Origin: Saccostrea echinata
Lineage: Eukaryota
Assembly (NCBI RefSeq): GCF_033153115.1
Contig: NW_026889758.1
Location: 48,298,001 to 48,362,000, forward strand
Direction of reading: 5' to 3'
Length of the DNA stretch: 64,000 nucleotides
Shown: positions 45,220 to 64,000 of the stretch, one piece after another
How positions within the stretch are numbered: the first letter of the stretch is position 1
How the letters are laid out: every line of letters starts with the position of its first letter
The notes under the pieces: generated by a model
What the model saw: the letters and a program-made list of their open reading frames with translations, nothing else
Databases searched by the model: none
Told to the model about the DNA's origin: nothing
Position numbers and translations under genes: made by a program

Positions 45220-46459
45220 GTAGGCCGTTTGGTATACAAAATAACTTTTGATATGGATGGCATACATTTTATGCTTAAAGATACTTATCTTTGAAAACAA
45301 CCAGTATTAACCATCTACTCTGTAATGACAGATATTAACTTTTATTCAAAATCATAGTCAAAATGCAACATACCTCGTTGTCTATGATTTCCCGCGGACA
45401 TGCGTGTCTATATACTGTTTACGCACTTCCTTCATCAATATTCATGAATAGGCTGAATTTTTAATTGCAGATCTTGCTTATTTGTTTTGTTATTACAATA
45501 ACTTATTTAGTAAAACTTTGTGGAAAGTAATTATTTTTAATTACATATCATGTTTCTCTAATCATTTAATCACTTTGTTTCACATAAAAAATCGCATTTA
45601 TATAGCGTGTATATCTTTAAATGGTAATTTTCATGAACAAATGGCCTAAAATTGATTGTTTTAAAGATTACACAAATTCTATGTTTTGAGGTCAATTATC
45701 ATGGTAGGTAATTTTTCCGAGCATGTTGTTTTAGTATTTTTTTTAAACCTATGATGGAGGTTTCAAATATAATAGGAATATGAAAAACAATGACATATCT
45801 TAAGAGATACATGTATATTACTCAGAATTTAGGCAAAATTTGCTAATTCGGCCATTTATGGAAATTCCTTATTTCAGGTGGTCCATTGGGGGTGGGGGTG
45901 GGGGCCAACAAATTAAGATTTCATTGTTAGATTTTTTGTGTTAAAAAATTATATATTCTAATTATATTAGCACAGATTTTCCACTCATCTTCTGAAACTG
46001 TAGTAATTTTTATGAAAAAAATTACCTAAATTGATTTTTTTAAAGATCAAATATGAGGTCTGATAGCAAAATGATAGGTGGCACTTCATATGACACCACA
46101 CCTTCAAATATCAAAAATTATTTTGTATTCGGAATTCTTATGCCTAGTATCAATATGTATGTTATTTATGTAAAATATCAATGATTTTGCTGAAATATAT
46201 GCTTGTGGACAGTTTTGCATGATTTTATCTGAGACAAGTTCTTCAGATGTACCAGTTTGCACAGCCAGTTGTTTACAATATGTAGGCCTTTTTCGGAGTA
46301 ATTTGTGTGATGATTGCTATTTGCTATAGTGTCTTCATTGCAATTTCAGACATAGACAATGAATTAGCTAAATCCTTTGTTTAAGTTGTACTGTCAGTAA
46401 TATTTATCATTTTAAGTAATGTAAAACTTTTTATATATTTGTATTTTTAGAATAATTCA

Positions 46460-58930: not shown

Positions 58931-60678
58931 TTTATTATAATATATAAAATATTTACGAGTATTATGCGAGTCCACTCAAAGTTATTTACGAATTTAATGA
59001 TTCGTGCTTTTTCAGTTTTTTTTCCTTTAAAAACTTATCGAACCAATTTTAGGTCATTTTAAAACTAATCAAATTTAAGTCAACAAATTTTAGTACATGA
59101 ATTGTATAGCATATATATTTCAATTAAATTACAACCGAACCGATACGTGATATGGGTTTTCGGGCCGGTCTTTGATAGAGGTTTTGTGTCGTCACTCGTA
59201 TCCCACAGTGCGGAATCGGTGTAAATGATAAAGTACGTATCTTAACACTTAGTAGCATTTTCAATGACTTTTATATATTAATGGCGTTTTTTTCTTCCCA
59301 ATCTCCCGTATTCATGTTTAACCTTTTTTCTATACATCCAGTGAAGAAAGGGCTTGGGCGGGCGTTATGTTGAAATTGATAAAGAAATTAAACGAAGACG
59401 TCATATATTTCGAATACATGTATATCTTAAAATGATAACATGGACTCAAGTCGATTTGATAGGGACGGGGAGGAGACGTCCACGATGTAAACAATTTACC
59501 TATTAATTCATAAAAGTATTGAAAAAATACAATAAAATCAATATCTAAGGAGCAAATCTACCAATTTTAGCGGCGAGGGTTTACATTGACTCTTCGATTC
59601 ACCGTCTCTAGCATTACCTCTACTTCTATAGAAACTCATTTAAAATATAAAAAACATAAATTCCGATTATTGTTAAAGATTTATTACCAAGAATACATAT
59701 TCTCTATCTGAAACACGGAAAAAACGTATGGTAAAAGTATTAATATAAATAAAACAAAAATAAAAGATTAATAAAATTAACACAAAATAAAAAATGGCAA
59801 AAAAGTTATTTAGGACAAAACAAAACAAAAAATGCAACAAAAGATGTAACAGAAGGAAAAACAACAACAAAAAGCCCTGGAAAAAAGTCTCAAAGTGCAA
59901 ACAAAAAAAATAAAATAAATAACGATAAAAAATAAAAAGAAGATGGTAAGTAATTGACCTTCATTAAGTACAAAGAACGCACCACAAAATAATACAACTT
60001 TGATAAAAATCAGTTCATATAAAAGTTTCGATGCAATCAGAAATTTTTGCTGCGGGCAAGTATCAAATAAATGTGTATAGCCGTCATCCGTGTATAAATG
60101 CTTAGTCTGTATGCAGTATCACTTTTGGCATTTGTGACAGTCTACACGCTTGTAGCATACTCCTCGACGATGAGTTGAACAGAAACAAATGGCGTTGCTA
60201 TAGAAATATCAAGGAAGTTAAAAAAGAACTGACCATATTACTAGTAGAAATGCTAACTTTCCCCCACCTGTGTTATAACAAAAGTTTGCCTTTTCTATCC
60301 CATTTGTAAACAAAAATTGCATCTGTTATTGCTCAATATAAACATCTGTATATAAATGTAAACTGTCGGAATTAATAAATTAATCTGCGTATAAAACTTG
60401 GTTTTGAATAATTGTCGATCTATCACGCAAATATAACGGTTAACTTTGCGTGTCTCTAAGCACTTTGTTATTTAACAGAAAAGGTAAATTTTGTCCAAGT
60501 AATTTGGCATCAATTGACACCTAGCACCTTTCAAACTAGAAAATCGATACCGGCAGGTGCGTGGCAGAGTGTGGGAATTTGGCGGGGTTTTTCTGTCGGA
60601 ATGTCACGAGGTTTTGTGATGTAAATTACACACTTGAAAATGTCAATACATGTCGCAGCATCGAAGTTCATTGCAGTG

Positions 60679-61734
60679 TTAAATCTCGCTCCTTTCGTAC
60701 AATTCCAGCAGTGTCGGTTTAAATTGCTTGGTTGCATAATACTTGGCGAGGACAAGTGAGGACAAGGATGAAATTATTTGTAAAGTTGGTCGGCAAAGTG
60801 GTCGAGGGTCCAAGCAGGCGGCAGCCAAGTCTTTAAGTTGCATAGAATAATAGCCGAATTCTCCGATGCAACATTTATTTTCTTGGGTAGTTTGAGCAAT
60901 TTGAGACGTCATTTCATGGAGGATTAGACCTAATCCCCACACTGTACTCTCTGGCCCGACGTATCCCCAGCTCAAAACCTCAGGGGGTACATAGGTAATG
61001 GAAGAAGGAGTTTGAAATTGAAAGTTTGACCCACTTTTCACCGGCAAATAGAGCAGCATGTTTTCTATTAAAATCCTGCCACGTTCGCCGATAACAATGT
61101 GGCGAGGTTGACACAGTTCCCACGGGTATACCCCATGGTTCCCCAAGTATATCAGAACGTCTGATAGCTGCAAAATGGTCTCCCAAATCAAAACCTCTGG
61201 AATGTGTCGTCCTTGAAGACGTACTTTGAAAAGAAGTTCTTCCAAATTTATGACTGAAAAATCGAAAATATGGAATATCCGATTGCTCTCGATCGCGCAC
61301 ATTTTCAGGTGACAGGTCATTAAATTTTTATGCCTGAAGGTGGCCCACATTTCCCGCGTTTTTGCATTGGTCATTTGTTTTGACCCGGATCCATTGCATA
61401 ATGAACATATTTCATCCTCTTTTTCTGATTTCATCAATATATTTGTCCCTGAGAAAGTACACTTCCCTGGATAAATCTGATGAACTTTGTGATGCACATG
61501 ATTTGGAAAATTGAAATTGTATTCAACAAACAAATCATCCAGAGTAAAGTCCGTTGGAATGTGAAACGTGCATAGAAATTCTTTGATCACATTTGGCAAA
61601 GGAAGAGTTGACACTTTATGAATATTGTCTATACCAATCCGTTGTAAAATCTTGTGTCTACAAGCATTCTGCAACGATGTCACACCAGTTTTAGTTGTTA
61701 CGCCGAGCGCGTGTGCCCTTCTATCTGCTTTCAT
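60679..61734 (-). CDS. Intronless 351-aa protein: N-terminal SOCS box + degenerate protein-kinase-like domain
   Basis: SLQNACRHKI...LPLPNVIKEFL (BC box + Cul5 box). Kinase C-lobe traces IPEVLIWETILQL, YVPPE, VWGLG, CLDPRPLCRPT. HRD and DFG are absent. Confidence 0.75.
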   Translation of the reverse strand: MKADRRAHALGVTTKTGVTSLQNACRHKILQRIGIDNIHKVSTLPLPNVIKEFLCTFHIPTDFTLDDLFVEYNFNFPNHVHHKVHQIYPGKCTFSGTNILMKSEKEDEICSLCNGSGSKQMTNAKTREMWATFRHKNLMTCHLKMCAIESNRIFHIFDFSVINLEELLFKVRLQGRHIPEVLIWETILQLSDVLIYLGNHGVYPWELCQPRHIVIGERGRILIENMLLYLPVKSGSNFQFQTPSSITYVPPEVLSWGYVGPESTVWGLGLILHEMTSQIAQTTQENKCCIGEFGYYSMQLKDLAAACLDPRPLCRPTLQIISSLSSLVLAKYYATKQFKPTLLELYERSEI

Positions 61735-61936
61735 TGTCGTTACTAAAGTGATACCGATAAGTGAACTGACTGCTAAAATTAGCGACGTTTAGCGCCATTT
61801 TCGCACCAGCCAATTGCCGATAAGCAAAAGGGATTCCTTGCATGACGCATATAATGTAGGGGTTTTCCAATTTTTCCCATGGTTCCACATAATAATATTG
61901 AAAAATTATTATGAATGTAAACTATGGCTGCTAAGC

Positions 61937-62738
61937 ATGAACAGAAAGGGAAATGGTCGGTTATTTGGCCGAAAAAGAGGTGAAAACAAGAACAAAGGAC
62001 CTCAACGACAAAGAGTGCCGTTCTACAGACGAAACATCGGCATAGCAGCTAGCCCGTTGCTGTTTATTTTCGGTTTGATTCGGCAACTTGCCTTTCAACT
62101 CTGGTTGGTACTTACATTGGTTGTATGCAAGTCTCGAGATTTGACGCGAGGGCAGTGCTATCGCCGTTTGAGAGCTGACGTCTCGGTGGACGCCGAAGCA
62201 GCTATGACGTCACCATCCAGAGCCAAGTCGCCCTCCCCTGCAGGACCTTCTCTGAGTCAGCAAAAACATTATCATAGAAAAGCGTTTGAATACATCTCAA
62301 AGGCGCTAAAAATAGATGAAGAAGATGCAGGTTATCCATCATTTAGTTTCAGTACCTCAAATTATAAAACGGCGGAAAAATAATAATCATAAGTCTCCCT
62401 GCACTGAATACAGAAACCATTGCTTTTAGATCTTATCTCTTGCATGATAACATGTATCATATAACACAAGCTTATTTAATCTAATTACCATTACAAATGG
62501 TTTGATAGATAGACTGTTACATTTATTTTGTTTGGTCTTTGATGTCATAATTGGTTTATCTTAGGCACCATGTATTGCTTGTGTAAGAAATATTCCATGT
62601 TAACAGTATTAAGTTTTCTTCATGTCTGGGTAACTTTTGTTTGTTTTATAGGGAGGAAGGATCAAGCAATTGAGATGTACAAGAAAGGCATTGATGCTCT
62701 CCAGAAAGGCATCGCTATAGAGGTTGCTAATGGCCAGG
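61937..62738 (+). CDS. SPAST: Spastin, 5' exons 61937-62330 and 62652-62738; the gene continues beyond the window
   Basis: Hydrophobic hairpin segment, then MIT domain [43 protein letters not shown]. Confidence 0.92.
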
Positions 62739-62891: not shown

Positions 62892-64000
62892 TTATTTTTC
62901 GTGCCCTGCCATGGATAGCATATAGTGTTTGTCATGTCTGTCTTCTGTCCTTATGTCCTTAAGTCTGTCCTTTCTTCACACTTTCTGTTTAGCTCAATTT
63001 CAAAGAAACTATTCAAGATATTTTTATCAAACTTCAAATGCTGAATTGCTGATACATATTGATGACAGCTATTCAGTATCATCAACACTTTTTGACCTTG
63101 ACCTTTTTGAAAATTTGTGTTTAGCTCAGTTTCAAAGAAACTATTCAAGATGATTTTATCAAACTTCAGGTGCTGATACATGTTATATAGTGAAAACTAT
63201 TTAACTTCATCAACTTTTTTTTGAGCTTGATTTTCCCTTTGACCTTGAACTCACTTTTCTTAAAGTTGTGTTTAGCTAAGTTTCAAAGAAACTATTCAAG
63301 ATGTTTTTATCAAACTTGATTCATGTTGGTGAAATCTAATCAACTTCATCCACTTTTTGGACTTTGTCCTTTCCTTTGACTTTGACCTCACTTTTCTTAA
63401 ATTAGTGTTTAGCTAATTTTCAAAGAAACTCTTCAAAATATTTTTATCAAACTTCATATGCTGATACATGTTGGTGAGAACTATTCAACTTCATCAACAT
63501 TTTTTTTTACCTTGACCTTTCCCTGCAGCTTGACCTTACTTTTCTTAAATTTGTGTTTTCCTCAGTTTCAAAGAAACTATGGAAGATGTTTTAATCAAGC
63601 TTCATATGCTTATACATATTGATGAAAGCTATTCAATTTCATCAACATTTTAAACATTGACCTTTCATTTGACTTCATTTTTCTCAATTTTGTGTTTAGC
63701 TCAGTTTTAAAGAAACAAATCAAGATATTTTTATCTGATACATTTTGGTGAGTGCTATTGACCTATATCAACATTTATTTGACATAGGCCTTCCTCTTGA
63801 CCTTGACCTCTTTTTCCTTAAATTTGCATGTAGCTTATCTTCAAAGAAACTATTCAAGATATTTTATGCACTGATACATTAATTGGTGAGAATTTATCAA
63901 CTATGTTCAATTTTTTTTTACCTTGACCTTCACAATGATAATTTATTGTGTCTAAAACTCAGTTTTGAAGAAACTATTCAAAATATTTTCATCAAACTTC
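62892..64000 (+). mobile_element. HINE-type element with long degenerate tandem central array, in a spastin intron; runs off the window
   Basis: ttttcgtgccctgcc..gcatatagtgttt..(tgtc)n head; repeated tgtgtttagctcagtttcaaagaaactattcaagatatttttatcaaacttc units. Confidence 0.7.

Follow-up and report, generated by a model that had tools for sequence, protein, structure and literature searches.

A single-exon gene of Saccostrea echinata encoding an N-terminal SOCS box and a NEK-like pseudokinase, a likely Cullin5 substrate receptor

Tribbles proteins hold their substrate with a dead kinase fold and attract an E3 ligase through a short motif; they are CAMK-derived and their C-terminal motif binds COP1, not Elongin BC/Cul5. 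The classical CRL5 receptors (SOCS/CIS, ASB, SPSB, WSB, RAB40 and MUF1) carry a BC box and, after it, an LP-phi-P Cul5 box, within a SOCS box that is classically C-terminal and in MUF1 N-terminal. NRBP1 is a pseudokinase that carries a BC box; PMC3365428 and PMC12254500 describe it as the receptor that brings substrates to an Elongin BC cullin-RING ligase, and work by Yasukawa from 2020 is cited there in this connection, so that the design of a dead-kinase Elongin BC receptor is already known. The substrate domains of classical CRL5 receptors listed in the accessible text of PMC3355856 are SH2, WD40, SPRY, ankyrin, LRR and GTPase domains, with no kinase fold among them. NEK6 and NEK7 are active kinases (GxGxxS loop, HRDIKPAN and DLG) without a SOCS box.

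The window, i.e., the whole stretch of 64,000 nucleotides analyzed here (contig NW_026889758.1, positions 48,298,001 to 48,362,000), contains an ORF of 351 aa, open in a single frame, whose gene has a copy number of 1 in the 923-Mb genome. Its product shares with the classical CRL5 receptors the succession of BC and Cul5 boxes, here N-terminal, and with NEK6/NEK7 the best profile and fold match, all three active-kinase motifs being missing. The features of the locus, in window positions, were as follows:
60679..61734, minus strand: single-exon ORF encoding a SOCS box and a NEK6/7-like pseudokinase
61573..61683, minus strand: SOCS box, residues 18-54 (Pfam match; three helices in the model)
61648..61677, minus strand: BC box, residues 20-29, SLQNACRHKI
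61573..61605, minus strand: Cul5 box, residues 44-54 (LPLP..I..FL), by the LP-phi-P rule of PMC3355856
60730..61566, minus strand: pseudokinase domain, residues ~57-335, from a NEK7-led profile, Foldseek and VIA-align
61477..61518, minus strand: His-rich loop, residues ~73-86, in place of the Gly-rich loop, from the family alignment
61396..61407, minus strand: CxxC insert (C110 and C113) between beta-3 and alpha-C, candidate zinc ligands with the His loop
61099..61125, minus strand: degenerate catalytic loop, residues 204-212, PWELCQPRH, from alignment to NEK7 and the family rows
61054..61062, minus strand: DFG equivalent N225-M226-L227, aligned with D179-L180-G181 (DLG) of NEK7
59920..60678, minus strand: probable 3' UTR, from the extents of contigs X1 and X8 (see below), which cannot fix its ends
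61735..61936, no strand: spacer of 202 bp between two start codons, candidate bidirectional promoter
61937..62330, plus strand: spastin exon 1, the divergent neighbor (PDB spastin, E 3e-11), followed by intron 62331-62651

A profile search gave 28 matches, 27 of which were close clusters with open full-length frames. The nearest relatives were 72-76% identical, and one such cluster was from Magallana; close members were also named from Pinctada, Sinanodonta, Potamilus and Mactra, five bivalves in all. Distant named members came from the limpet Patella caerulea and the jellyfish Rhopilema esculentum, as well as from the corals Oculina and Montipora and the sea anemone Nematostella. This range was read from the named members: most matches carried no name, and no vertebrate, insect or nematode was among those named. 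The best match of the Oculina protein in the host genome was the locus described here (E 2e-19). A lineage-specific innovation, as first suggested for this gene, is contradicted by the same architecture in Patella, Rhopilema, Oculina, Montipora and Nematostella. For the comparisons below a family set of 83 rows was used: 28 bivalve-like, 29 distant and 26 coral/anemone-like.

The original prediction placed an N-terminal SOCS box at residues ~18-54, and it was confirmed there: Pfam SOCS_box PF07525 matched with 35.4 bits (cut-off 23.5, E 1.2e-8), and the AlphaFold model from 74 rows showed helices at 21-33, 35-43 and 48-54 with pLDDT 95-97, where an earlier model from 29 rows had reached only 40-55. 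The peptide SLQNACRHKI satisfied the BC box consensus [APST]-L-x3-[CSA]-x3-[AILV], as given in the accessible part of PMC3365428. Downstream, LPLP at 44-47 satisfied the LP-phi-P motif that the accessible text of PMC3355856 links to Cul5, above all through the Pro at the fourth position. The full BC plus Cul5 pattern appeared in none of 100,000 shuffles of the protein. In a PDB search with the 47-aa N-terminal piece the top matches were the SOCS boxes of ASB9 and ASB7 (E 0.002-0.004), with KtrA, a chance match, ranking between them.

Both boxes were widespread in the family. The BC box consensus was present within the first 160 aa in 76 of the 83 rows, with L21 in 80 and C25 in 79. Strict LP-phi-P was found in 62 rows and failed in 21 because the second position is often Glu, Gly or Thr (14/28 bivalve-like rows), whereas P47 was present in 83/83 and formed the sole invariant column of the 74-row alignment. 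Pfam SOCS_box matched all 13 close relatives; among 25 more distant ones it scored above cut-off in 16, below it in 5 and gave no match in 4, three of the latter being N-terminally short. A profile built in this analysis assigned a family-type SOCS box to 33 of the best 150 representatives at 50% identity; it matches its own training rows by construction, and the 16/25 from Pfam is the independent figure. Across the host genome, 63 SOCS-box matches were found among 94 candidates scored, many in long open frames and part of them apparently duplicate contigs.

The remainder of the protein was recognized as a kinase with differing strength. Pfam kinase matches, spanning 124-317, were weak: PK_Tyr_Ser-Thr scored 25 bits (cut-off 23.1) and Pkinase 24.4 bits, under its cut-off of 31.7. 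The nearest solved sequences to the protein alone were those of NEK7 (E 2e-7), and the family profile against the PDB gave NEK7 at E 4e-45, NEK1 at 1e-28 and NEK2 at 5e-27. The 74-row AlphaFold model had an overall pLDDT of 90.1 and a pTM of 0.88; VIA-align placed NEK7 (2wqm) first (Z 20.9, rmsd 3.4, 230 aligned), with NEK2 and PAK2 within 1 Z, and Foldseek also ranked NEK7 first (E 7e-14); the order was the same with the 29-row model. These structure searches returned kinases throughout and bear on the kinase part, not on the SOCS part. With the Magallana homologue as query, the ESM Atlas returned kinase clusters only and no SOCS-kinase cluster, the NEK6 subfamily being first by structure. 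Wording shared with NEK6/NEK7 included beta-2/beta-3 (C..D), IPE..W and W..G. The NEK-like wording noted originally thus agreed with both profile and structure.

The catalytic apparatus, in contrast with that of NEK7, was degenerate, much as the original prediction had it. No GxG motif was present in any of the 83 rows, in line with the claimed absence of a Gly-rich loop, and no row combined the catalytic Asp with the DFG Asp. HRDLKPxN had been described as lost, and PWELCQPRH stands in its place: the NEK7 catalytic D161 falls on L207 when the family is aligned and on E206 in the pairwise alignment, and the Asp is absent both ways. DFG had been read as replaced by ENM; its loss held, but the letters need correction by one residue, the equivalent being N225-M226-L227 and E224 the counterpart of the Gly that precedes DLG in NEK7. 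Roles of the NEK7 residues used for comparison were taken from the accessible part of PMC4632185, in which the kinase-dead NEK7 mutant is D179N; a change of this type (Asp to N225) is carried by the protein itself. Further, NEK7 L86 aligns to a nearly invariant Trp and NEK7 Y97 to C141. With both the HRD and the DFG Asp lost and the beta-3 Lys kept (K102, equivalent to K63 of NEK7), the protein classifies by sequence as a pseudokinase.

Like NRBP1/NRBP2 (Madm, HPO-11), the predicted protein combines a dead kinase domain with an Elongin BC box. The arrangement is different: in NRBP the pseudokinase domain comes first and the BC box follows in the C-terminal half (PMC12254500), whereas here the box is N-terminal. 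NRBP needs homodimerization and its kinase domain is WNK-related, according to the available part of bioRxiv 2024.12.12.628181, while the fold here is NEK-like; and its cullin has been reported, in the sources available in part, as Cul5 or Cul2/Cul4A, against a full Pfam SOCS box with Cul5 motif in our case. The 60 best PDB profile matches, led by NEKs, did not include WNK, and WNK1 reached Z 18.6 versus 20.9 for NEK7, in a comparison made with the published NRBP layout and WNK structures rather than NRBP sequence. Since the NRBP layout failed and the domain is NEK-like, the protein would work like NRBP1 without being an NRBP, and the family, as far as alignments and models tell, reached the known dead-kinase receptor design independently of NRBP1. 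A literature search (titles and abstract openings, excluding subscription journals and kinome supplements) found no description of a SOCS-box NEK-like pseudokinase family, which is apparently undescribed. The original prediction had recognized no named family; the members are conserved and circulate under misleading names, the database labels being 'Nek6-like', 'Nek7-like', 'Nek2' or hypothetical, mostly automatic.

Where NEK7 has its Gly-rich loop, the protein has a helix and the His-rich loop, and the CSLC insert noted earlier in the N-lobe is present as C110/C113. All 40 rows with CxxC have at least three His in the loop and none of the 43 rows without it do, a co-occurrence counted over related rows and not an independent test. 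Within the 28 bivalve-like rows conservation was highest in the His loop (0.89), with 0.79 in the catalytic loop, against 0.64 in the SOCS box. The co-occurrence suggests that the CxxC and the His loop form a putative zinc site. Coral/anemone rows are without CxxC and have a His/Cys set of their own at 79, 85, 86 and 113.

We consider it likely that the product serves a Cullin5-Elongin B/C ubiquitin ligase as substrate receptor, its pseudokinase fold binding the substrate. Known SOCS-box biology predicts that the BC box binds Elongin C and that the LPLP box selects Cul5 over Cul2. The substrate itself would be gripped by the dead kinase fold, and the likeliest binding surface in molluscs would be the remodelled ATP-site face (His loop, CxxC, PWELCxP and ENxLLYLP), possibly zinc-braced, a candidate because the best-conserved segments of the bivalve-like rows surround the former ATP site. 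As to the partners, a host Elongin C exon (residues 67-112) was identical to the PDB chain at 45 of 46 positions, and exons of both Cul5 and Cul2 were found in the host genome. Matches of a Skp1_POZ scan were rejected as Elongin C; they were Skp1-type genes instead.

An unlikely alternative is a pseudokinase scaffold or allosteric partner that engages Elongin B/C chiefly to support its own folding or turnover, with no ubiquitination of other proteins. The pTM of the model suggests packing of the SOCS box against the kinase domain, a quarter of the rows have an imperfect Cul5 box, some SOCS boxes are poor Cul5 binders, such as that of SOCS1 despite its Cul5 box (PMC3355856, accessible text), and NRBP2 acts independently of Elongin B/C (accessible part of PMC12254500). 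Against this stands the Cul5-specifying Pro47 as the only invariant column of the alignment; recruitment of Cul5 is favored because this invariance is hard to explain otherwise.

Improbable, too, is a decoy in the NEK6/7 pathway, in which a NEK7-type C-lobe groove would bind NEK9 or NLR proteins and the SOCS box would destroy them. In the accessible part of PMC4632185, R131, L132 and K140 of NEK7 contact NEK9 and the kinase-dead D179N form is dominant-negative; NEK7 also binds NLRP3, with contacts that include Q129 and R136 (PMC7830601, accessible part). The coral/anemone set keeps R/K at R131 in 26/26 rows and at K140 in 26/26, and L132 in 17/26. The 28 bivalve-like rows, however, have Arg at R131 in 6 and Lys in 4, Lys at K140 in 3 and M122 in none, and the NLRP3 contacts Q129 and R136 are not conserved. 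A NEK9- or NLRP3-docking role in bivalves is not supported, the NEK7 contact residues not being kept there. As the coral/anemone branch has both its own His/Cys set and R131/K140, the two branches of the proposed receptor may bind different partners.

The gene lies head-to-head with spastin. The spastin intron has a GT..AG joint in X1 and in X8, and AAA motifs were found downstream of exon 1 in the host genome. The same arrangement recurred in the two clam-type metagenome contigs recovered, L002 (spacer 341 bp) and L003 (326 bp), and was thus seen in 3/3 bivalve-type loci examined at 202-341 bp, although the proteins encoded there are only 36-38% identical to the one described here. A promoter shared by the two genes is likely. 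Head-to-head gene pairs are often kept without shared function, and a function shared with spastin is only a lead. A co-regulated controller of spastin or of microtubule severing, with the promoter pairing the gene to its substrate or pathway, is improbable: NEK6/7 act on the spindle (PMC4632185, accessible part) and the pairing persists at the low identities just given, but no paper connecting the SOCS-kinase gene and spastin turned up in the literature search.

Several other elements were observed in the window. Within a spastin intron, 63111-63865 holds a tandem repeat of ~148 bp in 5.3 copies that is very abundant in the sequencing runs. An open frame of 733 aa at 56001-58202 (minus strand) has RVT_1 and GIY-YIG domains, a build we take to be that of a Penelope-like retroelement, and related contigs occur in the runs. 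A BTB-BACK-PHR exon, presumably of Cul3-adaptor type, lies at 52812-53888 (minus strand), a WD40 exon at 46451-47389 (plus strand) and a tandem repeat resembling tRNA-derived sequence at 16148-16855.

That the protein is an atypical yet active kinase, or an ATP-binding protein, is very improbable. The beta-3 Lys is kept in 71/83 rows, as are the APE Glu and the alpha-H/I Arg. Opposed to this are the missing Gly loop, the lack of any row with both Asp, a variable alpha-C Glu and the hinge, whose third residue is Pro in 65/83 rows and Ser in the S. echinata protein; this hinge position donates a hydrogen bond to adenine, which a Pro there removes.

The original prediction named selection and expression as means of checking the gene, and both spoke in its favor. 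Contig X1 (59920-62328; RNA type presumed, same-species-like) spans the whole ORF in one piece and crosses into spastin as well, which is not proof of a single transcript; contig X8 (RNA-seq, related species) covers 60019-61649 and thus 60679-61649 of the ORF. The segment 59204-59737 had no cover in any of the four sequencing runs, and run X6 did not cover the ORF. Of 45 listed-type differences between X8 and the ORF, 38 were classified (18 synonymous, 20 non-synonymous), with a pN/pS of 0.31 (P 4e-4) that ranges over 0.22-0.41 depending on the seven unclassified ones; there were 51 differing letters in all, and the ratio, calculated by hand, would be ~0.5 if all 13 unclassified were non-synonymous. 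Both indels preserved the frame. The differences from X1 were all non-synonymous, a small number (3/3), and dN/dS across distant bivalves was saturated (pS 0.80-0.84). The gene is under purifying selection, and it is a real gene of an old conserved family. A decaying processed pseudogene or chance ORF, which the intronless structure and lost catalytic motifs might suggest, has a negligible probability and is refuted by conservation: full-length frames in 27 close clusters, the pN/pS, RNA-type contigs and cnidarian relatives.

As to origin, one branch splits the family from intact NEK-type kinases, with 100 SH-aLRT in a quick tree of 73 rows and 100/99 in a tree of 26 rows. The 73-row tree leaves the place of the family among NEKs open. 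In the 26-row tree, whose reference kinases were labelled here by their motifs, the family groups with NEK6/7-type kinases and one unassigned kinase (branch 90/91, unstarred). The AU test rejected a NEK2-type sister group (p 0.013) and left NEK10-type (p 0.14) and NEK6/7-type (p 0.13) standing, and the trees, on the rows sampled, do not single out NEK6/7 as the parent. The host also has an intact NEK6/7 gene of at least seven coding exons; therefore the gene studied here would be a paralogue and not a decayed orthologue. In that NEK6/7 gene (G000:C56:7844570-7844990, L021) the intron that follows the GTPYYMSPE exon seems to hold ~5 repeats of that exon's 3' end.

The intronless structure described originally was found again here and in both L002 and L003; since genes in the database are called on raw contigs, the share of intronless relatives may be inflated. 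A retrogene, also proposed originally, is plausible given the exons of NEK6/7, but not a recent one: it would be a very old event, and an old retrocopy is a plausible origin. Before cnidarians and bilaterians diverged, a copy of NEK6/7 type, possibly made by retrotransposition, would have acquired a SOCS box and given rise to the gene. A broader proposal, possible but doubtful, is an ancient animal family of ligase receptors: a NEK6/7 copy made before the coral/mollusc split would have lost catalysis and gained a SOCS box, the mollusc branch would have developed a zinc-braced His/Cys substrate face, and the family would be a second independent dead-kinase cullin receptor, placed beside spastin in bivalves and possibly targeting proteins of microtubules or the NEK pathway.

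The labels of active 'Nek6', 'Nek7' or 'Nek2' kinases on these proteins in corals, jellyfish and bivalves affect kinome counts and expression studies. With a family member in Nematostella, a tractable animal is available for testing the mechanism. If the likely receptor role is true, it would add the kinase fold to the substrate-binding domains of Cul5 receptors, as an independent parallel to NRBP1.
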